A stretch of DNA of 64,000 nucleotides from Eledone cirrhosa. Lineage: Eukaryota. Below the pieces are notes generated by a model, which worked only from the letters and a program-made list of their open reading frames with translations, ran no database searches and was not told where the DNA came from. Positions 13,945-63,228 of the stretch are shown piece by piece (position 1 is the first letter of the stretch; each line of letters starts with the position of its first letter). Made by a program: the position numbers and the translations under genes. Location of the stretch: contig OZ024743.1 of assembly GCA_964016885.1 (NCBI GenBank), positions 28,334,001 through 28,398,000 of the forward strand. The letters are read 5' to 3'.

Positions 13945-15170
13945 GTTCGTTAATTTGCAGTTCATCTAGCATTCGATAATCTATCTTAGATTTTACGAGC
14001 ATCCTATACAAAGAGAATTTTATCTTTCCTCTGGCTTATACCATAAAATAAAGTTAAGCACTATTTATAGTGAAGGGAGCAATTTAATGATCTGAAGTAA
14101 GCCACTATCCATGCGATCCAAACAAAATTAGGTTACTTTCAAGAAAATCATTGAAGTTCTTGAAAAATATACAGATTCAAAATATAAAAGTGTCCTTATA
14201 AAATATCAGACTATAAACTACCTAATTTCATAAAACATACTTAGAATAATATTTTCGAATATAAAGTGAAGGACGGAATAAAAAGAATGAAAGGGACTTC
14301 TGTCAGATTCGATGTTAAGTTTCATATTAACGAAACATTTCTATTCAAATTAAGGTGTAAGTGGCTGGCCCGTACATAGCTTAAATATAATTCTTAAGTA
14401 GAATCCGTCTGACATAGTGTGTGACAAGGTTTGTGATTTGAATGAAAGATACAGTCCATCCAACAGACTTCAAAACAGATTCTGTGTCAACTCTATATGA
14501 CTCAAAAGCATTCGATCGACCTAATGACCTTTGTCTAAAATGCTACACCGTGGGATCGAAATCGAGAGTTTAGGATTGCGAAGCAAATGTTTTAACCATT
14601 CGCCAAACCTGCGCCCTCGAATAAAAAGAAAACAATTATAAGTAACTTATCCCTTGAGAAATAATAATATTATAATGATACAGCAGAGAAATAACAAATT
14701 ACTGAATGTGAATTAAATTTAAGTATCTAAATTTAACGGAATCCACTAAGGTTTTGTAATTATAATTCTATGCAATTATATTGTAAATATGATAATTTTA
14801 CACGCAATATTATTTGCAGTCTTTTTTTTAAAAAAAAAAGAATGAAGACGTGCTCATAAAACAGGTTAGTTTAGAAACTTTGTCAAATCATCAAATAAAT
14901 ATTTAATTATTTTCAAAAACTCTTTGTCAAATACTCAAACAAAAAATTAATTCAGCTCCACTTTAAATAGTTTCTAGAAAAAGTATTGATAATAGTGCAA
15001 CGTTCTATATACCCACGTTGTCTTTCAAAATTCTAAATATCCGGCTAAACGAGAGAGAAAAATCAGACATAAAATATTACATGAATTATTAACGAAAATA
15101 TTCATATGAAGTATAACGTATAAAAAGACGGGAATATCACTGAATGTTGATCTCCGTCATAACTCACACA

Positions 15171-15221
<51 letters not shown>

Positions 15222-15454
15222 ATCAATCTAGCTGTCGTCTGTTCTACAGTGTGGATGTCATTCACTTCGCACAGAAGTTTTGTTCAAATTTATTGAGGAA
15301 ATTTTGTAAGTTCAAACTTAATTTTGATACAATTGTGTAGCTTGACCCTCCGTCTGAACTGTCAGGCGGTGGGTCAGCTCATCTTTACCCCTCCTAGAGG
15401 TGAAAAACCTGTTTTAAAAAATTTTGTGTAAAAAATTTCAATCGTCTAACAGAA

Positions 15455-17356
15455 ATGTTAAACGCAGCGAACGAAAATAGTGGTGGGGGGACAGCGGTAA
15501 GAGTTGTAAGCTCGCACGCTTTAGTCCTCCCTTCCTTCCCAACTAACGTCATAGAGAAGGAAGCAAAAATTAAAATAAAAACGGACGAATCTGCGGAGAA
15601 AAAATTAAATGACGTAAACACAAATCTGGACTTGGATTCCAACAACGAAAAAAAAAAATTTGAAAAATTGCATGACAATACTAATAACACAAACAAAGAC
15701 ACAACAAACAAAAAAATAACAGTTGAAAATAACACCATATCAGAAAACAAAGCAGACGACAAGATTTCATTTGCACAGAAAACAAAGAAATCTTTGACTT
15801 ATATAGCGGAAAACATTTCAGATGTGGTACGAAGGATCACGGACGCCAAACAATACATAAGTGAAGGAGAGAATGGCATTTTATCGGTAAAAATGCCTCA
15901 AGAATTCACGAAAGACATTGAAAGCCGAACGGTCAAGTTTCGGACCATCAACAACAGTACAAAAAAACCTGAACAGCCTTCTCAAGCAGATATCAAAACA
16001 GTACTCACAGAAGTACTGAATGAAACAACTTTCATAAGAAAAGACAGACTGTATGGAAGTCTAGCAATTATCATGAAGAACGAATCGGCGGCAAAAAAAT
16101 GTGCTTTGTCACCGATTCGTTCGAAAAATTTCACCTTTTATCCATCTTATATGGGGAAAAGAACTCAGCGCATATGGCTGGATGCAATGATGCCAGATGT
16201 GGACTACTGCTGGCTCATAGCTGGCTTCATCGATCCAGTGAATGACAACGTGATTTCCATTGGGAAAACCACAGGCAATGCGTTCAGTGGAACAGGTATA
16301 GAACTGGTAGTGCAAATGAAGCCTGAACGCATCGCCCAAATACCCGACAGAATCCTATTAGAGGACCACGGGTATATAAACATTAGCGTGGAGGGGAGAA
16401 GGCCGTCCTGCCATATCTGTGCAGGCAGAGGGCACCTGAAGGCCGCTTGTCCCCAACTCAACAAAAAGAAAACCCTGCTACCAACACCAGCTCCACCACC
16501 ACCACCACAACAGATAAACAAACAACAAAACTCAGTCCCACCCAACCCGTCCCTCAGTAAAACCACAACACCACCACAACACAAACAGTCACAACACATT
16601 ACCCCAAAACAAAATACAGGCCCACCCAACCTCTCACTCAATAAAACAACACAACCACCGCAGACACAACACACAACACAGTCTAACATAGTGACATCCA
16701 TCTCCCCCACAAAGAAAACCAACACGGAAACATTACCAGCAAACATACCTCTTCCCTCCAACACTGAAGATAACCCAACGAATTCGGAGGAAGAAACGGA
16801 GTCCTTCAGACAGATTAAAAGGAAAAAAAGAAAACATGTGCAAAACACACAAGGACAAACAACCCCCACCCAAATCTCAACACAATCCAACAAAACAGAA
16901 AACACCCCTCCAGCAACAAACAAAACCAAACCTGCCCCTCCCCTCTTCGAAACACTCACACCATCGGAAAAAAAGACATTACACTATACTTACATCAACA
17001 GGAACAATAATAAATTAAATGAACTCATATACAATAATCCTTCGGTACAAACCGAAGGTGTAAACTTTGTTTCGTCAGAAAACTACCCACATTTAAAACT
17101 AATAAAGATCCCAATGAACCTCTACCAAAAACTAAAAAAGGATTTTAAGGAGGACGTAGGACCACCCTCTGTCAAACCCATAAACCGCGTCCTACTAAAA
17201 AGCTTTCCTCCTCCCCTTCCCCTCCCCAACACAACTCCAAACACCCCAACCCCACCACACACTGACGACCCCACACCACCACAAGACACCCCTTCACCCA
17301 ACACCCCCGACCCCATGGAAGTCGTGCAACCCGAACCCCGGGAAGCGGAAAGGTAG
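15455..17356 (+). CDS. LINE ORF1 protein (gag-like nucleic-acid-binding protein, one CCHC zinc knuckle, Pro/Thr/Gln-rich C-terminal half)
   Basis: 633-aa ORF with CHICAGRGHLKAAC (CX2CX4HX4C), directly upstream of ORF2; homologous to the broken ORF1 at 61118-63228. Confidence 0.9.
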   Translation: MLNAANENSGGGTAVRVVSSHALVLPSFPTNVIEKEAKIKIKTDESAEKKLNDVNTNLDLDSNNEKKKFEKLHDNTNNTNKDTTNKKITVENNTISENKADDKISFAQKTKKSLTYIAENISDVVRRITDAKQYISEGENGILSVKMPQEFTKDIESRTVKFRTINNSTKKPEQPSQADIKTVLTEVLNETTFIRKDRLYGSLAIIMKNESAAKKCALSPIRSKNFTFYPSYMGKRTQRIWLDAMMPDVDYCWLIAGFIDPVNDNVISIGKTTGNAFSGTGIELVVQMKPERIAQIPDRILLEDHGYINISVEGRRPSCHICAGRGHLKAACPQLNKKKTLLPTPAPPPPPQQINKQQNSVPPNPSLSKTTTPPQHKQSQHITPKQNTGPPNLSLNKTTQPPQTQHTTQSNIVTSISPTKKTNTETLPANIPLPSNTEDNPTNSEEETESFRQIKRKKRKHVQNTQGQTTPTQISTQSNKTENTPPATNKTKPAPPLFETLTPSEKKTLHYTYINRNNNKLNELIYNNPSVQTEGVNFVSSENYPHLKLIKIPMNLYQKLKKDFKEDVGPPSVKPINRVLLKSFPPPLPLPNTTPNTPTPPHTDDPTPPQDTPSPNTPDPMEVVQPEPREAER

Positions 17357-17389
17357 GTCTCTACACTCTCCTTTGGCTCTGCCGCCCAC

Positions 17390-20300
17390 ATGGATGTGTT
17401 AAGAGTAGGATGTTTGAATGCACGTGGCCTGGGCTCAACTTGGAAGCAAGCAAAGCTTCTAAATGACCTCAGGTCATGTAGTATAAATGTAATGGTTATC
17501 TGTGAGACTCGAATCAGCGTCGTACGGCAGCTGGCCCCCACCTTCGATGACTTTGAGGTGCATGCATCTCTCTGTCAACCTGGAGGTGGGGGTGGGGTTG
17601 TCGTACTGCTGCAAAAACACCTGGGTCTTGCCGTACAGGTTGTGCACTCTGACCCGGAGGGTCGTTTGTTGGTGCTAGACGTTGGCAGTAGTGAAAATGC
17701 GGCCTTGAGACTGGTCGCCGTCTACTCCCCTTTCGGAGCTGAACGGCCCGACTTCTTCCAGCGTTTGGAGACTTTTCTGGGAACGTCGCGTTCCCTGCTT
17801 CTAGCGGGGGATTGGAATGACATCCTGGATGCACGTTGGGACTATGCAGGAGCATGTCCTAATAGAGGGGGGTGTAACAGCCTCAAGGGGTTACTCGACC
17901 GTTTTAACTTGGTCGATAGATATCGACTAGATTTTCCAACTGTGCCTACCTGGACTTGGAGAAACCACAGTGGTCAATCTAGATCGTACTTAGATAGATT
18001 CTTAGTTAGAAGTAAGGATAGGGACATATTAAGCTGTCCAGAAATGCGCACGGTTGGCTACACGGATCACAAATTAGTGACCTGCGTGGTCAATCTCGAG
18101 AAAACACATAGACAGGGTCCCGGTTACTGGAAACTTAATTTGTCCTTACCGGCAAAAGAGACTTACAGAAACCGGATTAGCAGATTAGTTAAGGAGAGGT
18201 TGACGGGTGCAATCGTCAACAACCGATGGTGGGCATCTCTCAAAAGAGAGATTAGAACAGAATCAATAAGTTATAGCAAGATGTTAGCTGCCGATAGGAA
18301 TAGAAACGAGAAAGAATTAACAGGTAAATTAGAAGAGGCAATCAAGAGCGAAGATGTGGCCAGAGTGCTGGCATCGAGGACGGCCTTGAACCAGTTTTTC
18401 GATGCAAAGCACGAAGGCTGCGCCATTCGAAGTAAAATACGTGCTCTAAGTAATGAGGGGGCCAAAGCCATTGGATGGGCCCGCGTGACAGAAGCTAAGA
18501 GTGGAAATCGATCCACCATCCGGTCGTTGCAAGACGAAGATGGACGGGTGATCCGGGAGCCTAAGCAGATGTGCGAGGCCTTTCAAAGGCACTTTGCCCG
18601 ATTGTTCGGGGGAGGCGAGGGTCCGGGCTGGGGCGTGGATTTCGGTCCATACCTCGACGGCCTGCTGCGTCTCTCGAGCGAAGAGGCAGAGTCCTGCGAG
18701 GGACCAATCTCGGCTGATGAGATCGGAGATGCGCTGAGCCAATGCAGCAGACGCAAATCTCCAGGTCTCGATGGTATACCTTACGAACTTTATTTAGCAA
18801 TGCCGGTCTTCTTCTCCGAACTCCTCGAAGCGGTCTACTGTAATTGGCAGCAGAACGGGAGAATTCCTTGTTCTGTAGCCAAGGGCGTAGTCACGCTGGT
18901 GAGGAAGGACGAGAACAAGGGGGATAGTATAAATAATTTTCGGCCCATAACCCTGCTAAACACAGAGTTAAAGATTTTGGCCAAGGTGTTAGCAAAGAGG
19001 TTGGCGCTTGTCGTGGGTGGCCTGGTGGGAGATGCGCAGACATGTGCTATCCCATCCAGGTCCATTCACGATAACCTCCACCTCATGCGATACATCATAG
19101 AGAGGGTTGGCAACAAACCCGGCTTCGGTGGGGCCCTGATCAACTTGGATCAGTCTAAGGCCTTCGATAGGGTCGACCATGGTTACCTGGATGCGGTGCT
19201 AGCGGCGGCTGGGTTCGCTCCTGTTTTCAGAGGCTGGATCACTGCCCTACATAGCAACCACATCTGTTCTAGGATCAAGGTGAACGGCTACCTTTCGAAG
19301 CCGTTCGAAATCACACGATCCATTCGACAGGGGTGCCCTCTCTCCTCCCTTCTGTACGTATTGACTCTCGAGCCTTTACTGAGGAAGTTGGAGTTGTTGC
19401 AGGGTATCCCCCTGGAACCAGGATTGAGCAAAGCGGTGTCGGCCTACGCCGATGACGTAACAGTAATGGTATCAACCGACTCGGAGATCGAGGCGATCGG
19501 TACCTTACTGGAGGAGTACGAAAGGTTGTCAGGAGCGAAACTGAACCGGGAAAAATCCATCGGGCTGCAACTCGGAACGTGGAGAGGCAGACCGATGCCT
19601 CCTGACGGTGTCGTCGGACACTGGACGGAGGGCCCGGTAAAGTTGCTTGGGGTCTGGTTTGGACCGGACCTCCAGGTGGAAAAGAACTGGAACGAGGTTA
19701 CGAACAAGGTGTTTGCACTAACCCAGAAATGGGCCAAGTGTAAGCTGTCCCTAAAAGGCCGGGCGGAGGTGGCGAACATTTACATAGCGTCCGTCACTTA
19801 CTACCGCCTGACTGTCGTGCCTTGCCCTAAGGAAACACTCACCACCATGGAACGCATGCTCTTCCAATTTCTTTGGAAGAAGCGTCCTCCTATGGTGAGA
19901 AGATCCATCTGCTGCCAACAACCTTCGAAAGGAGGGCTGGGGATGCCGTGGTTGCTGATGCGTAGGCACGCATTAAGGCTACGGCACCTACAGGTATTCC
20001 TCACTGGTCAACCGGTGTGGGCTCCGTTCGTGAAACGAGCCTTTCCGAGACTCGTCTCGCTCACCGAGCTACAGTCCTGGGTCAAGCAAAGATCCGGAAA
20101 ACTGGGAGACTGGCACACTGAGTGTGCTCAGGCGCTCAGGGCTCTCTGGCAAGCGGGCCGGGCCATCGGTGGAGAATCCACCTCATCATTCTATAGAGGG
20201 CTGGTGGCTAGCAGGGGCGATGACACCCTTGGAGAGTCGCTGGACATGGAAGAAGACGAACTGGCCAGCCTGTTCGGTAGGACTTTCGGCCCAGGACCAA

Positions 20301-20827
20301 TGGACAACTTCCAGAAGTCACTGGCCTGGCAGTGCTACCGGGGGGCTCTACCCGTTCGAGAGAGGCTCTACAGACACGGGCGCCCGGGCAGGGATCCCTC
20401 AAAAAAGATTTGCCCTAGATGCGTGCGTCACGAAGAAACCGTTGCGCACGCATTGGTGCAATGTCCGGGCGTGGCTGATCTGTGGGGCTACGCCGAACAA
20501 CTGCTGTCGCGGGTGGCGCCGATTAAATTGACAGCCGAGTCCGTGATGACAATCAAACCGCCCCCCCTCTTCACAAAGGAAGCAAAGGCGGTTTTTCTGT
20601 GCGTAATAGCCATGTTGAAAGAGGTTGTTTGGTGGACACGATTGAAAGGTCTGAGGTCAGGCAACTTCCTCTCTGGCCATAGTCTGGTCTACTTCTTCCG
20701 ATATCACTTCGGAAGAAGGATAAGAATGGAGAGAGAGGTGCTTGGCCACAGGCAGTTTTATGAAAGGTGGGTGATAGTGGCGAGAATGGCTCGTGTAAAT
20801 GGGCCTTCTCTGTATACCATCCTGTAG
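17390..20827 (+). CDS. LINE ORF2 protein: APE endonuclease + reverse transcriptase + C-terminal CCHC
   Basis: 1145 aa. APE motifs LNARGL, ICET, AGDWN, SYLDRF, TDHKLV. RT motifs KSPGLDG, FRPITLLN, LDQSKAFDRV, IRQGCPLS, YADD. C-terminal CPRC..ETVAHALVQC. Confidence 0.97.
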   Translation: MDVLRVGCLNARGLGSTWKQAKLLNDLRSCSINVMVICETRISVVRQLAPTFDDFEVHASLCQPGGGGGVVVLLQKHLGLAVQVVHSDPEGRLLVLDVGSSENAALRLVAVYSPFGAERPDFFQRLETFLGTSRSLLLAGDWNDILDARWDYAGACPNRGGCNSLKGLLDRFNLVDRYRLDFPTVPTWTWRNHSGQSRSYLDRFLVRSKDRDILSCPEMRTVGYTDHKLVTCVVNLEKTHRQGPGYWKLNLSLPAKETYRNRISRLVKERLTGAIVNNRWWASLKREIRTESISYSKMLAADRNRNEKELTGKLEEAIKSEDVARVLASRTALNQFFDAKHEGCAIRSKIRALSNEGAKAIGWARVTEAKSGNRSTIRSLQDEDGRVIREPKQMCEAFQRHFARLFGGGEGPGWGVDFGPYLDGLLRLSSEEAESCEGPISADEIGDALSQCSRRKSPGLDGIPYELYLAMPVFFSELLEAVYCNWQQNGRIPCSVAKGVVTLVRKDENKGDSINNFRPITLLNTELKILAKVLAKRLALVVGGLVGDAQTCAIPSRSIHDNLHLMRYIIERVGNKPGFGGALINLDQSKAFDRVDHGYLDAVLAAAGFAPVFRGWITALHSNHICSRIKVNGYLSKPFEITRSIRQGCPLSSLLYVLTLEPLLRKLELLQGIPLEPGLSKAVSAYADDVTVMVSTDSEIEAIGTLLEEYERLSGAKLNREKSIGLQLGTWRGRPMPPDGVVGHWTEGPVKLLGVWFGPDLQVEKNWNEVTNKVFALTQKWAKCKLSLKGRAEVANIYIASVTYYRLTVVPCPKETLTTMERMLFQFLWKKRPPMVRRSICCQQPSKGGLGMPWLLMRRHALRLRHLQVFLTGQPVWAPFVKRAFPRLVSLTELQSWVKQRSGKLGDWHTECAQALRALWQAGRAIGGESTSSFYRGLVASRGDDTLGESLDMEEDELASLFGRTFGPGPMDNFQKSLAWQCYRGALPVRERLYRHGRPGRDPSKKICPRCVRHEETVAHALVQCPGVADLWGYAEQLLSRVAPIKLTAESVMTIKPPPLFTKEAKAVFLCVIAMLKEVVWWTRLKGLRSGNFLSGHSLVYFFRYHFGRRIRMEREVLGHRQFYERWVIVARMARVNGPSLYTIL

Positions 20828-21050
20828 GTAAAGAAGTAAATGAGAGGGGAGCACCTTCTCCATGTGCTCCCCGGGCAAAGGATTGCACACTTTTTCGGGG
20901 GTGTGTGCAACCGCCATCACGTCCCCTCCCTTTTGAGGTTATTTTCGATTATTTTCATGTTACACCCTTTTTACTCGATTATATGTAAACTCCCCCTTTG
21001 TATTTGTCCCTTCTTTTTATGCCTTTATGGTAAATAAAGAAATCTATCTA

Positions 21051-22559: not shown

Positions 22560-23495
22560 GATATTAGGACATAAAAGTTAAAAACAATCAGAAGGATGTA
22601 TAAAGTGTTTCCAAATGGAAATCCAATGAGATATGGAGATCGAATCACATCGGTTTCCAACAGCTCCAAGAGGGTAAGTAGTCACTCTTTCCAGCCAACA
22701 TTGCAATTATAAGAGTAGGGTATGTAGGTGTACGTGGCGTCGACCTGGAAGAAAAATGATTTGCTCAACGATCTCAGGTCACTAGCTATAAATATGACAG
22801 CCATCAGCGAGACAAGAATTTCCGACATGCGCACATTAGCCTCCCCTTTTTACATCTTTGAGATCTACACATCTCTTATTCAGCTGTTATTGGGAGCATG
22901 GTAGTTACGATCTTCCTGGATTTGGACAGTAAATTAATGATCCTAGATATTAATGTTCGCAAAGGTGGTGCTTTCACACTGGTGACTGTCTATACACTGA
23001 CTGGGTCATGACGGGTAGTTGTTTCCACGCATCTGGATGCCTTTCTTGGAATGCCACGCCCTTTACTGTTAGCGGAGACTGGAACAGCATCTTAACGTTC
23101 AAAGGACTGCACGAAAGCAGGGGATAAACGAGAGGATTCAAAAGCCTCAAAACTGACAAGACAGTTTCAACAGTCTGAGCGTTACTGACTAGATATCCCG
23201 AATTCGTGAACATGGAGTATAGCGTCACAGAGATAGGTTTATATTTGTATAACATATAGGGATAGTATATTTTGTCCACAATTACAAATACATACATATT
23301 AAGACTACAACTTATTGATCTGCATGACCAACCAAGATAGAACACATAGACAGAGAGCTGGTTACTGGAACATTAACGCATCGTTCCCAGCACGTAAAGT
23401 CCACAGTGACCGGATTCGCACATTAGTTAAAAGACAGTTGACTGGAGCAATCGTGAATAATAGATGGTGATACACTCTCAAGAAAGCGATTAGTA
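22560..23495 (+). mobile_element. Old degenerate Tx1/L1 ORF1-end and APE fragment (T4, inverted part)
   Basis: ataagagtagggtatgtagg (IRVG), ttgctcaacgatctcaggtca (LLNDLRS), gcggagactggaac (GDWN), ggttactggaac, atcgtgaataatagatggtga (IVNNRW). Confidence 0.8.
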
Positions 23496-46146: not shown

Positions 46147-49100
46147 TTTCTTTATTAGCCACAAGGGCACAAAAGAAGGGGACAAATACAAATGGGGAGT
46201 TTACATACAGGTATATGAAAATAAAACTATTAATACAATAACAAATAACAATTGAAATCCCCAATAGGGGGAGGTGTTACACAGGAGTCGTACACACCCC
46301 GAAAAAATGTACAAACCTCATCTCCAGGAGCACCAAGAATGAGTACTCCCTTCCTCTCTTCCTCTTTTTCCTCAACCTACAGGCTTATATAGAGAGAAAG
46401 CCCAACCACTCGGGCCATCTTTGCCACATTCACCCACCTTTTATAAAAGTTGCTGGGGTACAGCACCTCTCTCTCCATCCTGATTCTTCTTCCAAAATGA
46501 TATTTGAAAAAACGAATCAGTTGCTCGCCGGAGAGAAAGGTTTCTGACCTCAGCCCTTTTAACCTCGTCCACCATATAACCTCTTTCACCATAGCCATAA
46601 CACATAGGAAAACCGCCTCTCCCTGGTTTTTTGAAGGAGGGTGGCGGTTTGATCATGACAATGAACTCGGTGGTCAACTGGATTGGTCCCACCCGCGACA
46701 ATAGTCGTTCTACATAGCCACACAGGTCGGTAATGCCCGCGCAGTGTACAAATGCGTGCGCGACGGTTTCCTTGTCGCGCACGCATCTCGGACAGATCTT
46801 TTTCGAAGGGTCTCTGCCCGGGTGCCCGTGTCTGTAGAGCTTGTCTCGAACTGGTAGAGCTCCTCGGTAGCACTGCCAGGCCAGAGACATTTGGAAGTTG
46901 TCCATTGGTCCCGGGCGGAAGGTCGTACCGAACAGACTGGCCAGTTCGTCCTCCTCTACGCCTAGAGTTTTTCCGAGCGTCTCGTCGCACTTGCTGCGGA
47001 CCAACCCTCTATAGAATGTCGAAGTGGAGTCTCCACTGATCGCCAGGTCCGTTTGCTTGAGGACTGTTAGCGCCTGAGCACATTCGATGTGCCAGTCGCC
47101 CATTTTCCTCGGTCTTTGCTTGACCCAGGACTGCAGCTCGGTCAGCGAAACGAGTCGTGGGAAGGCTCGCCTCACGAACGGGGCCCACACCGGTTGTCTG
47201 CTGAGGAATACGTGGAGGTGCCGCAGCCTGAGCGCGTGTTTGCGCATCGTCAGCCACGGCAATCCCAGCCCTCCGTTTGAAGGGTGTTGGCAGCAGATGG
47301 ATCTTCTCACCAAAGGAGCCCGTTTCTTCCAAAGGAATTGGAAGAGCGCGGACTCCATTTTGGTGAGCGTTTTGGCTGGACAAGGCACGACGGTCAAGCG
47401 GTAGTAGATGACGGACGCTATAAAAGTGTTCGCCACCTCCGCCCGACCTTTCAAGGATAGTTTGCACTCGGCCCACTTCTGGGTGAGCGCAAACACCTTG
47501 GCCGTAACCTCGTCCCAGTTCTTCTCCACCTGGAGGTCAGGACCAAACCAGACCCCGAGCAGCTTTATCGGTCCTTCCGTCAGCGTCCGACGACGTCATC
47601 GGTTTGCCTTTCCACATTCCAAATTGCAAACCGACGGATTTGACCCGGTTCACCTTCGCTCCTGTGAACCTTTCGTATTCCTCCAGTAAGGTGCCGATCT
47701 CCCCGATTTGCGAGGTGCTCGACACCATTACTGTCACGTCGTCGGCGTAGGCCGACGCCGCTTTTCGCAGTCCCGGTTCCAAAGGGATGCCGTGCAATAG
47801 CTCCAACTTCCGCAGTAGTGGCTCGAGAGTCAGTACGTACAGAAGGGAGGAGATAGGGCATCCTGTCGGATGGATCGCGTGATATGGAACGGCTCCGATA
47901 GGTAGCCGTTCACCTTGACCCTTGAGTAGATGTTGCTGTTGTGCATTGCAACAATCCAGCTCTTGAACATGGGACCGAAGCCTGCCGCCTCGAGCACCGC
48001 ATCCAGGTAACGATGGTCAACCCTATCGAAAGCCTTAGACTGATACAAGTTGATCAGGGCTCTACCGAAGCCGGGTTTACACCCTACCCTACCCTCTCTA
48101 TGATGTATCGCATGAGGTGGAGGTTGTCGTGTATGGACTTGGTCGGGATTGCGCATGTCTGCGCTTCTCCCACCAGGTTTTCGACAACAAGCAGCAGCCT
48201 CTTTGCCAACACATGGCCAAAATCTTTAACTCTGTGTTGAGCAGCGTTATGGGCCGGAAGTTGCCTATGTCATCCCCCTTGTTCTCGTCCTTCCTGACTA
48301 ACGTAATTACGCCCTTTCTGCTGCCAGTTGCAGTAGACCGTTTCCAGTAGACCGGAGAACAAGTCCGGCATTGCTACGTAAAATTCGTAGGGTAGACCGT
48401 CGAGACATGGAGATTTGCGTTTGCCACAATGGCTCAGCGCGTCCCCTATATCAGCGGCCAAAATAGGCCTTTCACAGAACTTCGCCTCGCTGTCCGTGAG
48501 TCGCGGTAGGTCGTCGAGGTAAGAACCGAAATCCATAGTCCCTCCCGGCGCACCGCCCTGCCCGAACAGTTGAGCAAAGTGCCGCTGAAAGGCCGCGCAC
48601 ATTTGCTTCGGCTCACATACACGCGTCCATCTTGGTCCTTCAAAGACCGAATCGTGGACTTGTTGCCACTTTTCGCCTCTGTCACTCGGGCCCAGCTAAC
48701 AGCTTTAGCTCCCTCGTTTCCCAGAGCACGTATTTTGCTTCTGACAACGCAGCCTTCATGCTTTGCATAGAAGAACTGGTCCAAGGCCGTTCTGGTCGCT
48801 AGCACGCTGGCTACGTGCCACTCCTAAGTGCCTCTTCTACTTTATCTACCAGTTCCTTTTCGGTCTTATTTCTATCTAACACTAATTGTTTACTAAAACC
48901 TATCGAGTCTAATCTAACTGCCCTCTTGAGAGAGTACCACCATCTGTTGTTGACAATGGCCCCCATCAAGTGCTGCTTAACTAAAGTGCTAATCCGTCTA
49001 CTGTAGGTTTTGCATGTCGGTAACGACAAGTTCAGCTTCCAGTAGCCGGGTCCCTGTCAATGGGTTTTGTCAAGGTTGACTAAGCAGGTCACTAATTTGT

Positions 49101-49917
49101 GATCTGAATAGGCAACCATGAACATTTGTGGACAGCTTAACATGTCCCTATCCTTCTTTCTAACTAGAACCCTATCTAGGTACGATCTAGATGTTCCGCT
49201 GAGATTAGTCCACGTCCACAGTGGCAGAGTCGGAAAATCTAGTCGATATCTATCGGCCAGGTCAAATCGGCCGATTAACTGTTTGAAGCTGTTTCACCCC
49301 CCTCTATCGGGACATGCTCCCACATAGTCCCAACGTGCATTTAGGATTCCATTCCAGTCCCCCGCTAACAGCAGGGAGCGGGACGTTCCCAGAAAAGTCT
49401 CTAGACGTTTGAAGAAGTCTGGCTGCGGTGTCCCGGATGGGGCATATGCGGCCACCAGCCTGAAGGCTCCACCTTCACTACCGTCAACGTCTAGGACCAC
49501 CAGTCGACTCTCCGGGTCCAGATGTACCGTCTGTGTTACGAGGTCCAGGTGTTTCCGCAGCAAAACGGCAACCCCACCCCCACCACCCGGCTGACAGAGA
49601 GATGCATAGATCTCAAAGTCTTCGAAGATGGGGGCCAGTTGTCGCTCGCTATGGATCCTGGACTCGCAAATGGCTACTACATCCATACTGTGCGACCTGA
49701 GGTCGCTTAAGAGTTTGACCTGTTTCCAGGGCATCCCCAGGCCGCGTACATTCACACATCCAACCCTTATATTGGCCATGTTGCTGCTGAAAAGTTAAAA
49801 GAAGAGGAAAAGAAATCACTCACATCTTCGTCTCCTGGGGACCAGGCTGCACAATTTCCATGGGAGTGTTGGAGGGGTTGTTTGTTGGGGTGGTGGTCTC
49901 TGGCGGGGTGAGGACGG
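46147..49917 (-). mobile_element. 5'-truncated Tx1/L1 copy (T2) with frameshifted ORF2 and the last ~30 codons of ORF1
   Basis: ORF fragments from 49294-49779 through 46377-46598 align in order to T1 ORF2. ORF1 tail MEIVQPGPQETKM* resembles T1 MEVVQPEPREAER*. 3' end AATAAAGAAA. 14-bp TSD AGATAATAGATA(C/G)A at 46133-46146 and 49918-49931. Confidence 0.93.
46377..49779 (-). pseudogene. Disrupted ORF2 (APE-RT) of T2
   Basis: At least seven separate ORF pieces with AGDWN, SKAFDRV, YADD and CPRC motifs; multiple frameshifts. Confidence 0.92.
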
Positions 49918-57814: not shown

Positions 57815-57911
57815 TGATGTTGGTAACACCGGTCGCACGAAAGTGATGGTATTGATATATATATATATATATATATATGAGTCTGTGCGTGCGTGCGTGT
57901 GTGTGTGTGTG

Positions 57912-59069
57912 CAGGCGATACATAGAGGAACTGAAGCAGCGCATTGTAGCAAAGAGTGCAAAAATCAGGCGATACGAGAACAGGGTCAGTCAGTATAAAC
58001 AGAACCGCATGTTCGACAACAACCAGAAGATGCTGTTTGGACAGCTTGAGGGGAAAGAAAGAGGCAACGACTTGATCCCTGAGGCGGAACAAACTAAAAC
58101 ATTCTGGAGAGGAATATGGGAGCAGGATGTTAGACATAATGACCAGGCAGGGTGGATTGAGACAGTACAGAGGGAGATTAGTGAACAGGCACACCAACAA
58201 ACTGATTTGAGTATCACAGTTGAAACTCTTAAGGGGCAGGCCAAAAAAATAACCAACTGGAAATCACCAGGCCCAGATGGTGTGCAGGGGTATTGGATTA
58301 AAATTTTAACATCCCTCCACCCGAAACTGACAACCATGTTCAATGACTGCTTGATGTCAGGTGAGGTACCAGAGTGGTTGACAAAAGGTACCACAGTTCT
58401 GATAATGAAAGACCGAATCAAGGGTAATGATGTTACCAACTATAGACCTATCACATGTCTGTCCGTAATGTGGAAACTGCTGACGAGCATTGTGTCTGAG
58501 GAAATCTACCATCACCTCCACACAAACAACTTGTTACCGGACGAACAGAAATGATGCCGAAAGAAGTCACGTGGTACAAAGGACCAGTTACTTATTGATA
58601 AGATGGTAATGAGGAATTGCAAGAGGAGACACACTGGTCTTGCCATGGGATGGAAGACTACAAAAAGGCATTTGACATGGTGCCTCACTCTTGGATCACC
58701 AAAAGCCTGGAGATCTTCAAGGTGGCAGATAACATCAGATAGTTGCTGGACAGGAGTATGAGGTCCTGGGAAACAGAGTTGACATCAACTTGAGAATCCT
58801 TGGGGAGCGTGAAGATCAAGAGAGGTATCTTCCAGGGAGATAGCCTGTCCCCTCTGTTGTTTGTCCTTGCCCTGATGCCCTTGACCATTATTCTGCGAAA
58901 AGTGAGAGCAGGATACAAGTTGGGAAAGGGAGAGCTTACTATCAATCACCTCCTCTTCATGGACGATCTTAAGCTCTTCGGGAAGTGTGAGAAGGAGTTG
59001 GATGTGCTTGTTGACACTGTCCGTATTTTCAGCAGTGATATATGTATGCAGTTTGGTATTAGTAAGTGT
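57912..59069 (+). mobile_element. R4/Dong-clade non-LTR retrotransposon internal fragment (disrupted RT)
   Basis: [81 protein letters not shown]. Contains in-frame stops and a frameshift. Confidence 0.88.
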
Positions 59070-61082
59070 GGACGCCCCTCAACGTCTCCAGTTTGTGCAG
59101 TAATGGCTCGAGAGTCAATACGTACAAGAGGGACGAGAGGGGACATCCTTGGCGGACCGAGCGCATGATGTTGAACGGTTCCGACAGGTGACCGTTCACT
59201 CTCACCACAGAGCAGATGTGGCTGTGCATGGCAGCGATCCAGCCTCTGAAGACGGGCCCAAAGCCAGCCGCCCTCAGGACTGCCGCTAGGTAACGATGGT
59301 CGACCCTATCGAAAGCTTTCGACTGATCTAAATTGATCAAGGACCCACCCGTGCCAGGTTCCCTAGCTACCCTCTCTACGATGTATCGCATGAGGTGGAG
59401 GTTGTCGTGGATGGATCTGTCGGGAATGGCGCATGTCTGCGCCTCTCCCACCAGACCACCAACGACAAGCGCCAACCTCTTTGCTAGCACCTTGGCCAAA
59501 ATCTTGAACTCTGTGTTTAGCAGAGTTATGGGCCGGAAATTATTTATGTTATCCCCCTTGTTCGGATCCTTTCTCAGCAGTGCCACCGCTCCTCGGCTCA
59601 CAGAACTGGGAATTCTCCCGTTCTGTTGCCAGTTGCAGTAGACGTCCGCCAAGAGGCCTCCGAACAAGTCTGGCATCTGTACGTAAAGTTCATAGGGCAG
59701 ACCATCCAAACCAGGCGATTTACACCTTGTGCAGCCAGTCATTGCCTCCCTTACTTCAGCGGCTGTTATCGGCTTTTCACAACACTTCGCCTCAGTGGCC
59801 GAGAGCCGCGGCAGTCCGTCGAGGTAGACACTAAAGTCCATCCCTCGACCCGGCCCACCGCTGCCCCCGAACAGCTGAGCGAAGTGTCGCTGAAAAGCTT
59901 CACATATTTGCCCGGGATCGAGTAGCATGCGCCCGTCGTGGTCCACCAAAGACCGGATCGTGGCTTTGTTGCCACGACGCGCCTCCGCCACTCGGGCCCA
60001 TTGAACGGCTTTCGTCCCCTCGTGTCTGAGAGCACGCACCCTTGCTCTGACAACGCAGCCTTCGTGCTTTGCATTGAAGAATTGGTCAAGGGCCAATTTC
60101 GCCGCAAGCACGTCGGTCGCAATGCCTTTGCTAAGCGCCTCGTCTAATTTTCTAACTAGTTCTCCCTCTGCTCTATTTTTCTCTATTGCTAAAGCCTTAC
60201 TAAACCTAATGGATTCTATTCTAATCGCTCTTTTCAGAGCAAACCACCACTTGTTGTTGACGATGGCCCCCGTCAACGCCCGCTTAACTAGTTCGCTAAT
60301 CCGGTCTCTGTAGGCCTTGGGCGCTGGTAAGGACGCGTTTAGCTTCCAGTAGCCGGGTCCTCGTCTATAAAGCCTATCTAAGTCAAGCACACAGATCACG
60401 AATTTGTGGTCCGTGTAGCTGACTATCTTGAATTGTGGACAGCCTTTGCTAGACCTATTTCCCTACAAAATACTCTATCTAGATATGATCTGGATGACCC
60501 TATGCGATTTGTCCAAGTCCACATTGGCACATTCGGGAAATCCAATCGGTACCTGTCAGACAGTTCAAAACGCCTGAGCAGGTTGGTGAGGCTCTTGCAC
60601 CCTCCACCCCTATTCGCTAATTCCACCCAGTCCCAGCGTGCATCTAAGATCCCGTTCCAGTCGCCCACTAACACTAAAGAGCGGGACGTTCCAAGAAAGG
60701 TCTCCAGACGCCGGAAGAAATTAGGCCGCCCTGCTCCTGTCGGGGCATAGACGGCCACTAGCCTGAAAGCTTGCCCGTCTCCGCTGGTCACGTCCAGCAC
60801 CACCAGCTTACCCTCTGGGTCCAGGAAGATGGCCCGTATGGCGAGATCCAAACCTCTCCGAAAAAGCACAGCAACTCCTCCCCCCGATCCAGGACGGCTG
60901 GGAGATGCGTACACATCGTAGCCGCCAAAGATCGGTGCGAAGGCCCGTGCTTCGGAGATTCTGGTCTCGCTGATGGCCACTACATCTATGTTTAGTGACC
61001 TGAGGTCGTTGAGCAGGTGACCCTGCTTCCATGACGACCCCAAGCCACGCGCATTTATGCTGCCTATTCTGAGTGAGGTCAT
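59070..61082 (-). pseudogene. Frameshifted, 3'-truncated ORF2 of T3
   Basis: INARGL, VGDWN, SYLDRV, one frameshift near 60430, then KSPGLDG, LDQSKAFDRV, VRQGCPLS. Confidence 0.92.
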
Positions 61083-61117
61083 GTTTAAAATAGAGTGGAA
61101 AAGATGAGAAAGACCAC

Positions 61118-63228
61118 TTACCGTACTTTTCGTAGAGGAGGGATGGTTTTTACATCCCTTTTCACTTGATCGTCTGGTGAAGGGACCGTTGAATCGTCCC
61201 TTCGGCTGGTCGTCGGCTCTTCTAAGAGAATGTCTGAATATACTCTTCGATTGATAGTTCCTCCTAGGTCCCTGAAATCACCAACTGCGTTGGGGAATTT
61301 CGTTTTAATGTTTGTGTATTGTTTCTGTGCTATTTTTAGCAGTCTTATGTTAGTTGGCGTTTTGATTGGTGCTGGTATTATGTAGTCGTGTTGTGAAATG
61401 TCTGTGTGTTCAATTATGTAAGTCATTAGTTTCTTGTTGTGTGTATTTATTGCCGTGCATTTGTTTTTCTGGTGGTGGGGGGTGGTTCTGCTATTTTCTT
61501 GTCGTTGTTGCTGGGTGTGCGTGTTTTGTTGTTGTGTTTGCGATGTTGGTGCTTGTGGTGGTGGTGTTGAAGGTGTTGTTGGCGGTGGGGTTGTAGCCGG
61601 TGGTGATGGTGGTGCTAGTGTGGGTGGTGATGGTGTTGGTGGTGTTGCTGCTGTGAGTCTCTTTGCAGTAGACTTTACCCTTTTTTCATTTCTTTCCTCC
61701 ATTTTCAAAGGCGACGATGCGCTGCTTCTGCGTTTGTGCCTTCTTACGACCTTTTACCATCCCTCTCCCACCTCACACTCCATGTCTGATTCTGCGAGGT
61801 CGGGGAGGGGTACCAGCTCCACTCTTTCACTTGTTGTTGTTGGTGATGTTTGCACCGGAGTCTCTGTTGCAGCTGCATTTGGTATTGCTGTTGTTGTTGT
61901 TAATACTTCCACTGCTACTGTTGTTTTTGATTTCAGTGGCGTGGGTATGGGTGCCACGGACCTATCGTTCCTGGTTGCCGCTTGTCCTGTTGCTGGTAGC
62001 CATGGAGCCAGTTTCGGAAGGAGGGGGGTTTTTCTCCTTTCTCAGGGTCTTCTCGTTGCAGAAGGCCCTGAGGTGAGTCTTCGATCCACAGCGAAAGCAT
62101 TTCAGGCGTTTGCCCTCAACACTTATGGGCAGTTGAGTGCCGTTATCGAAGTCTATCACATCCGGGATAGCTTCGATGCACTCCTGGTTGGTTTGGATTA
62201 ACATCTCAATGGAGGTGCCGACCCAATCTTCTCTTACTTTTTTCTGTAGTTGCAGTACAGTTGTTTTGTCCTCGATTCCGACGAGGACAGACGCGGCCAG
62301 CCAAGAAGGGGCCATCCCGGGGGGGACGTGGGTCAGTTTGACCCTCACAATTTTTTGCCCGCAGTAGGAGGGCACCAACACCATTTCCTCGCTCCTTAGG
62401 GTCACTAAGGATTGAGCCTTTGCCTCCTGGGGTGTGGCAAAATGTACGTCTACGGTGGCATATTTCTTGCCTCGGGTGATGTGCGTTTTCCGCTGCCACA
62501 CAGACCCCCAAGGTTTTTTGTATTTGAGCCTCTGTGGCTCTTTCAACCCTGCGGGATTTTGTACTTACTGTACGGTACGTGACCGTATAGTGCTGTTGGG
62601 TTTCGAAAAAATTTTCCGCTGCCTTGCAGAATGCTCGGTGTCTAGTTTTTGTCACCATCTTCTTCGCTTCCTCTAATTCCTCATTTGTTATGAGGATGGT
62701 TTCCAGGTTCTTCGCAATACCTGCACACGCGATTGGTTTTTCTTTGCTGCTGCTGTTGTTGTTGTTGTTGTCGTCAGAGCTGCTGTTACTTTTGTTGTTG
62801 CTGCAGGTACTACGACTACTGCCGCCGCCGCTGTTGCTGTGGTTGTTGTTGTTGTTGCTGCTGCTAATGCTGTTGTTGTTTATGCTGCTGCTGATGCTGA
62901 TGGGGCTGCTACTGTTGTTTTCATTGTCACTGTTGCTGTTGTTATTACGGCTGCTACTGCTATTATTCCTGACGTCAGACGAATGAAATGGGTTTTCGTA
63001 TTTCCCGCACACCTGTTTCGTCGTTGTCGTCGTCGTCGTGGAGAAATCTTGCACGCTTTGCACGAGACTTTTCTTTTCTGTCGTCGCTTGCGAAAGAGAA
63101 GGGAGGGAGAGAGACACATTTAAAGAAGGGAGGGAGAGAGACAATCTTCTCTCTGCTGTAGTGACGATTGAGGAAGAAGAAGACGGAATGAGTGGGAGTG
63201 ACCTATGAAAATTCTTTTTCGTAGCCAT
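61118..63228 (-). pseudogene. Frameshifted ORF1 of T3
   Basis: Starts MATKKNF; contains a Ser/Asn microsatellite tract, a CCHC knuckle and a Pro/Thr-rich region; about three frameshifts. Confidence 0.85.

Follow-up and report, generated by a model that had tools for sequence, protein, structure and literature searches.

The window analysed here is a stretch of 64,000 nucleotides (nt) from Eledone cirrhosa (contig OZ024743.1, positions 28,334,001 to 28,398,000 of the forward strand) and harbors one intact copy (T1) and three damaged relatives (T2, T3 and T4) of a family of long interspersed nuclear elements (LINEs), which carry a 5′ splice-site-like motif at the end of their first open reading frame (ORF1). 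T1 occupies 15226..21042 on the plus strand between (ATCT)n tracts, with a 5′ end common to all 12 other T1 copies fetched; ATCT repeats adjoin all 12 of these ends, and the fetched copies thus display a repeat-target preference as described for some Tx1 elements. ORF1 (633 amino acids (aa), 15455..17356, +), the predicted coding exon, contains a CCHC-type knuckle seen by eye, and a Pfam search with it gave no match. ORF2 (1145 aa, 17390..20827, +) matches the Pfam families PF03372 (Exo_endo_phos), PF00078 (RVT_1, reverse transcriptase) and, slightly below the cut-off, PF13966 (zf-RVT), thus comprising an N-terminal APE endonuclease, a reverse transcriptase and a C-terminal zinc-binding region, and the closest solved structure is human LINE-1 ORF2p (E 2.7e-49, compared with 3e-20 for R2). 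It is followed by a 3′ untranslated region (UTR; 20828..21042, +), the predicted terminal exon, with a purine-rich start and an AATAAA at 21033-21038. The separate upstream ORF1, the 5′-truncated copies, the simple-repeat 3′ end and the lack of long terminal repeats (LTRs) identify T1, as judged from its sequence, as an L1/Tx1-type non-LTR retrotransposon; the Tx1 clade label is that of an earlier note on this DNA, the homologues found carrying no names.

The family is large and partly young. A search pattern in ORF2 that is independent of the motif gives 10,719 copies in the 3.0-Gb genome, several of its subfamilies are young, and many near-identical intact copies exist. The 15 subfamily representatives compared are 64–94% identical over the first 900 nt of ORF2, and the third-position identity of the subfamilies to T1 is 0.44–0.71.

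In T1 the motif, denoted D2, is a strong donor, AAG/GTAGGT (17350..17358, +; the slash marks the putative exon-intron boundary), which carries the ORF1 stop codon and has its GT at 17353. Equivalent donors are found in the degenerate T4 (GG/GTAAGT, 22671..22679, +, GT at 22674), in which the frames are broken and ATT occupies the ORF2 start position, in T2 (AT/GTGAGT, 49818..49826, −, GT at 49823, ORF2 ATG at 49779) and in T3 (CG/GTAAGT, 61116..61124, −, GT at 61121, ORF2 ATG at 61082). All four motifs reported in the earlier note are hence confirmed. The AT preceding the donor in the window copy of T2 seems to be a private change, since three other T2 copies have AG. In T1 the donor is followed by a pyrimidine-rich spacer (17359..17389, +) that ends in the ORF2 start context, and the C+T content of this spacer is 76–92% in 15 subfamilies.

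Conservation extends far beyond the window. GTRRGT preceded by G is present 25–47 nt upstream of the ORF2 start in 15/15 subfamily representatives, and a sixteenth subfamily (F86) has the variant GTAATT 52 nt upstream. Taking the copies in genome order, 28 of the first 30 have the G/GTRRGT motif within 70 nt of the ORF2 start, as do 17 of 20 copies chosen for variety (the other three having GTRRGT or GGTAATT) and all 30 loci of a further set, compared with a chance background of 19 in 1828 segments of 70 nt from both strands of the 64-kb stretch. As a motif search was used to locate the site, it is to some extent bound to be invariant at positions +1, +2 and +6; more telling are its presence in all 15 representatives, the G at +5 (15/15) and at −1 (14/15), and its survival of phase shifts. 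By comparison, only 23 of 133 four-fold degenerate sites (17%) are invariant across the same 15 sequences.

The claim that the ORF1 stop lies inside the donor is true for every copy in the window but not for the family, in five subfamilies of which the donor is in another phase. It is in phase 1 in F97 (ORF1 open for 643 and 641 aa), F90, F37 and F213 (640 aa, in three of six copies), and in phase 0 in F67 (ORF1 of 280 aa), and the ORF1 frames through the donor agree with homologous ORF1 ends. Whatever its phase, the donor precedes the ORF2 start and keeps to within about 10 codons of the ORF1 stop in all subfamilies examined. Since the donor stays while the stop codon and the frame move, it is the donor and not the stop that is kept. 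Selection thus appears to act on an RNA motif. The check set in the earlier note, conservation of GTRRGT in further subfamilies, came out in its favour, and the motif has the properties expected of a genuine 5′ splice site under selection, with a U2-type consensus (AG/GTRAGT) kept beyond coding need.

Contigs from a second organism (run X5, organism B) carry the junctions of T1, F56 and F67 with intact donors. Contigs of runs X1 and X5, which are of unknown kind, cross the donor unspliced, and five contig runs of unknown kind have no joint listed in 17240-17450; neither observation has a bearing on expression or splicing. Of the 105 joints in one contig mapping 15 were shown, none of them at the donor.

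A motif of this kind might be kept for reasons other than splicing. Together with the pyrimidine tract it could be a re-initiation or internal-entry signal for ORF2, or part of a hairpin, that merely resembles a donor. Consistent with a role in translation, ORF2 has its own conserved start context, and the F67 ORF2 starts at an ATA overlapping the ORF1 TAG, which suggests termination-re-initiation. In many subfamilies, furthermore, a hairpin enclosing the donor can form between the pyrimidine tract and the purine-rich end of the exon, the summed stem length being 90 as opposed to 77 for shuffled sequences (P 0.02, in a test designed after the first one). However, the tests give a mixed picture: T1 pairs poorly and the hairpin is also weak in F51 and T3, 4 of 20 sequences fall below p 0.05 when compared with their base composition, and native pairs do not beat swapped ones (P 0.19). 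Moreover, the variation of the motif follows the donor consensus: either purine occurs at +3 and +4, +5 remains G although the search would have accepted T, and the G at −1 is kept as described above, while the distance of the motif to both stop and start varies. We therefore consider a translation signal unlikely. The ATA-TAG overlap of F67 was found in every copy read (L067, L070, L083, L096 and L212) and is a candidate for non-AUG termination-re-initiation in its own right.

Alternatively, the motif could be a functionless ancestral accident kept by common descent. The subfamilies are related, G+TRR+GT needs only three bases beyond a stop codon, and an outgroup search yielded nine distant metagenome loci, six of which have an inspectable start region and, by eye, no G/GTRRGT before their ORF2-like start. 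(Two other sources of relatives were unproductive: the close protein family P0004 was not found in this genome outside the known family, nor in metagenome contigs, and a scan of viruses was empty.) Against an accident, the four-fold sites are invariant to only 17% over the same 15 sequences, and the motif stayed while its flanks and the spacer (25–52 nt) changed and the stop moved in several lineages. Mere descent is accordingly an even poorer explanation than a translation signal, and quite improbable.

If the motif is a splice donor, the question is what it would be joined to. The earlier note proposed an intron of the spacer, 37–53 nt long in the window copies (considered here as 37–61 nt), whose removal would take out the ORF1 stop and fuse ORF1 to ORF2, the acceptor being the AG of the fifth ORF2 codon, an arginine AGR (17402..17403, +, in T1), or, for T2, a TTTTCAG. 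Its arithmetic is correct for the window copies (introns of 51, 40, 37 and 53 nt, all joined in frame; for T2, lengths of 40 and 58 nt keep the frame as well), the frames fit in 8 of 13 subfamilies compared (F135 and F37 were left out of this comparison), and a YAG is located just upstream of the ORF2 start in T2, F97, F213, F86 and T4. The agreement of all four window copies is nevertheless one fact rather than four, because a donor with the stop at +2 to +4 is in phase 2, as is the AG of an AGR codon. Codon 5 is AGR in the window copies but CGA in subfamily F89, and the join fails in 5 of the 13 subfamilies, in F89 for want of the AG and in F67, F97, F90 and F213 because it is out of frame, F213 being a young subfamily with ORF1 open for 640 aa in phase 1 as described above. 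The YAG preceding the ATG is likewise out of frame in F97 and F213.

The acceptor side of such a mini-intron is poor as well. On a heuristic of our own the arginine AG scores −7.4 to 5.9, compared with 8–11 for the best sites, and with this weak score and frames fitting in only 8 of 13 subfamilies it was rejected as an acceptor. The pyrimidine tract noted previously is present, but it adjoins the donor and not the AG, so that a branch point could not be accommodated upstream of it. Although such an intron would contain the ORF2 ATG, most copies keep this codon in an A/C-rich context. The strongest objection is that a fused RNA, coding for the enzyme, would be copied in cis and should therefore leave intronless copies, of which none was found among the 606 T1 copies and 73 donor variants described below. 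The donor is thus real, while the mini-intron is not borne out and has a very low probability. Readthrough, the alternative offered for T1, is not general, as the stop-to-ATG distance is a multiple of three in only some subfamilies. A single 796-aa protein (P0026) has an ORF1-like part that continues into the start of a related ORF2, and may represent either a mutated stop or a real fusion.

A different partner for the donor lies at the far end of ORF2. In T1 a pyrimidine-rich run followed by CTGTAG/G (20800..20828, +), in which TAG is the ORF2 stop codon, forms a candidate acceptor ranking 2nd of 252 AGs, and T2 has the same CTGTAG/G at its ORF2 stop (46376..46400, −, TAG at 46379-46377). In 14 of 15 representatives the last bases of ORF2 are CTGTAG or CTATAG, in most cases with a G after them, and the ORF2-stop AG ranks 3rd of 165 conserved AG columns and between 1st and 22nd of the approximately 260 AGs of each element. 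In 8 of 15 representatives purines make up 80% or more of the 30 nt that follow it, as they do in 1.2% of ORF2 segments; this purine-rich tract, which precedes AATAAA, is in our view similar to an exonic enhancer. CTCAG/G at 17472 was also tried as an acceptor and rejected (rank 11 of 165, with CGG or AAG in some copies).

Joining the donor at 17353 to the ORF2-stop AG at 20827 would remove ORF2 exactly, as an intron of 3475 nt (17353-20827) within which it lies entirely. After the predicted join, ORF1 would stop within four codons in 9 of 15 representatives (4.7 expected for random phase, nominal P 0.007, with a cut-off chosen after seeing the data and related subfamilies), among them all five off-phase subfamilies, and in T1 the protein from the predicted spliced RNA is identical to that of the unspliced ORF1. 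We tentatively favour, with somewhat less than even confidence, the reading that some of the transcripts lose ORF2 by splicing from this donor, the ORF2-stop AG being the probable acceptor. The spliced RNA would be a short ORF1-only messenger supplying abundant ORF1 protein (ORF1p), whereas translation of ORF2p would begin at its own start codon on the unspliced RNA, probably through re-initiation; the unspliced RNA would also be the only form copied into the genome, which would explain why the intron is never lost.

Several points weigh against excision of ORF2. The acceptor score is a simple pyrimidine/YAG heuristic of our own, and two internal AGs (20196 and 17804) outscore the ORF2-stop AG. 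Conservation of the TAG alone is not unusual, as 15 of 34 two-fold purine sites are equally conserved, and the early-stop statistic carries the limits given with it. In 6 of 15 subfamilies the join would add tails of at least 19 codons. Furthermore, the stop codon of ORF2 is TAA in the T3 subfamily, which by hand count accounts for 26 of the first 100 ORF2-pattern rows; the next AG, 7 nt further on, is weak, as seen in all T3-type ends aligned.

The absence of spliced copies from the genome weighs in the same direction. None of the 606 T1 copies with the exon end has a non-G base following it, the single T1 match to GTAA is not spliced, and three motif searches for a changed +3 base (13, 28 and 32 matches) gave no spliced copy among 73 matches, all of which were read. 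Apart from one recombinant and one microhomology deletion, these variants show point changes or small indels, and no genomic copy lacking ORF2 between the donor and the ORF2-stop site was found among them. Two loci were considered as spliced copies and rejected: in L175 the deletion begins at the donor but ends after ACG rather than AG, as expected from microhomology, and the long open frame of L050 results from a deletion across the stop and not from a splice. The variant searches cover subfamilies with about 79% of copies, hence several thousand (an estimate based on a hand count of the first 100 ORF2-pattern rows), leaving out T2, F67, F90, F97, F213, F37 and F86, and their NNB patterns miss joins with A as third exon base and copies with an altered exon motif. 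Gapped pattern searches for spliced copies also returned none, without a positive control, and the ungapped searches are relied upon instead. As an RNA lacking ORF2 cannot copy itself, this negative result weighs less here than for the fusion. It does mean that splicing cannot be abundant in the germ line and its product at the same time be mobilised efficiently in trans, and excision of ORF2 fits it only if the ORF2-less RNA is very rarely mobilised in trans or germ-line splicing is rare.

The same lack of spliced copies suits a close rival, in which the donor binds the U1 small nuclear ribonucleoprotein but is rarely spliced and, together with a weaker donor in the 5′ UTR, protects the full-length RNA against early termination, cryptic polyadenylation or nuclear decay. 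This second donor (D1, 15306..15311, +) is the GTRAGT-type motif GTAAGT in T1 and GTGAGT in 11 of 12 other T1 copies. Most subfamilies have a motif like it (GTRAGT and relatives) some 30–90 nt from the 5′ end, with a U-rich run after it, although none was seen in two F90 copies; such motifs thus recur at similar places in 5′ UTRs that cannot be aligned. Three T1 variants of D1 were found and none is spliced, which supports U1 binding without splicing, all the more as a splice within the 5′ UTR would leave both ORFs intact and, in human L1, such products account for about 2% of full-length copies (PMC5860796). The phase of the donor would also be irrelevant to such a function. Precedents exist, according to the portions of these papers available, in the foamy-virus donor at which U1 suppresses polyadenylation (PMC3694450) and in the protection that 5′ splice sites provide against Restrictor (PMC12211998).

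On the other hand, the poly(A) hexamers are concentrated in ORF1, upstream of D2 (eight in T1), and not in ORF2 (one in T1), and their distance to D2 is not conserved. U1 binding alone leaves unexplained why the exon end coincides with the end of ORF1 and why the ORF2 stop resembles an acceptor, and a perfect donor ahead of about 250 AGs would be unlikely never to be used. Protection by U1 is possible, but we hold it for somewhat less probable than the use of the donor in splicing; the two models are not mutually exclusive. Three further features of the 5′ region were observed. A YAG is found just upstream of the ORF1 ATG in T1, F74 and F67 (CTAACAG in T1), and no copy spliced from D1 to this acceptor was found. 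Inverted repeats are present in the 5′ UTRs of all groups (15344-15404 in the window), and a GRCGT/GGATGT-like motif near the 5′ end resembles an internal promoter element.

Several features beyond the junction were also observed. Full-length elements form head-to-tail tandem arrays with a spacing of approximately 5.8 kb and up to ten units (C1:348919672-348931641, C1:423365218-423418069 and C1:4225357-4255778). Recombination between subfamilies is indicated by L245 compared with L243 and L244 (same ORF2, different 5′ UTR), by L157, in which a T2-type ORF1 end is joined to an F56-type junction, and by the swapped 3′ UTRs of L249 as opposed to L251 and L252. Two target specificities are suggested, the T1 group residing in (ATCT)n (15163-15225 and from 21043 onward in the window) and T3, F90 and F213 in (TTA)n. 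In the window a further reverse transcriptase-like element (a 225-aa frame, 57877-58554, +) is positioned head-to-head with the 3′ part of T3.

Most of what is known about the balance between much ORF1p and little ORF2p in LINEs comes from mammalian L1, in which splicing is regarded as harmful. Here the stop codon and the frame have changed repeatedly, and yet a family of more than 10,000 copies has retained a strong donor at the end of ORF1; if either of the two leading models is true, a LINE uses the spliceosome on purpose. If the whole of ORF2 is one intron, splicing would yield the ORF1-only messenger and intron retention the transposing RNA. That the spliceosome, perhaps gated by the donor hairpin, thereby sets the ratio of ORF1p to ORF2p and switches transposition is a possibility we put forward with reserve.

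Within the literature on LINE splicing and related topics consulted, mostly the openings of abstracts and with few subscription journals, no LINE was described that has a conserved donor where ORF1 ends or the whole of ORF2 as a single intron, and neither Tx1 nor splicing is mentioned in the available part of PMC9115989. The known systems compared below are likewise cited from the accessible parts of the respective papers.

Similar in architecture are the Tx1 elements Kibi and Koshi (PMC4494074), which share the two ORFs, an APE endonuclease together with reverse transcriptase and zinc-binding regions, and the insertion into microsatellites, whereas the flanks here are (ATCT)n or (TTA)n instead of (TC)n or (TTC)n; the part of their description seen makes no mention of a donor at the junction. 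Drosophila TART, also a non-LTR element, has spliceosomal introns that resemble one another across its subfamilies (PMC1636488). Contrary to the arrangement proposed here, those introns measure 53–489 nt, belong to antisense transcripts of the UTR and are not what divides ORF1 from ORF2.

Two further systems have comparable splice donors. The major splice donor of foamy virus is needed for full-length RNA, and an RNA structure gates the access of U1 to it (PMC3694450). It is located near the 5′ end, however, and acts on an adjacent poly(A) site, and no conserved poly(A) site is found beside D2. Human L1 also has a conserved donor in an RNA that mostly evades splicing, and its 5′ UTR donor is comparable to D1 (PMC5860796, PMC2896524). 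Spliced products (SpIREs and SpORF2) make up about 2% of its full-length copies (PMC5860796), they derive from 5′ UTR donors and give ORF2-only or promoter-deleted RNAs, and the splicing is interpreted as harmful. In contrast, the strongest donor of the present family is at the end of ORF1, looks selected and is associated with no spliced copy found.

For the excision of ORF2, the nearest parallel is provided by the Ty1/copia elements Drosophila copia and Arabidopsis EVADE, whose Gag is made from a spliced subgenomic RNA (PMC7197481). There, splicing yields the structural protein in excess while the unspliced RNA serves both as messenger for the enzymes and as template (PMC7197481), the same division of labor as proposed here. 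Of the elements needed for a copia-like splice, the donor is present and the acceptor AG is found in 14 of 15 representatives, being absent at that place in T3. Copia and EVADE are LTR elements with a single gag-pol ORF, form virus-like particles, and their splicing has been demonstrated, whereas the family described here consists of two-ORF LINEs in which the predicted intron would comprise the whole of ORF2.

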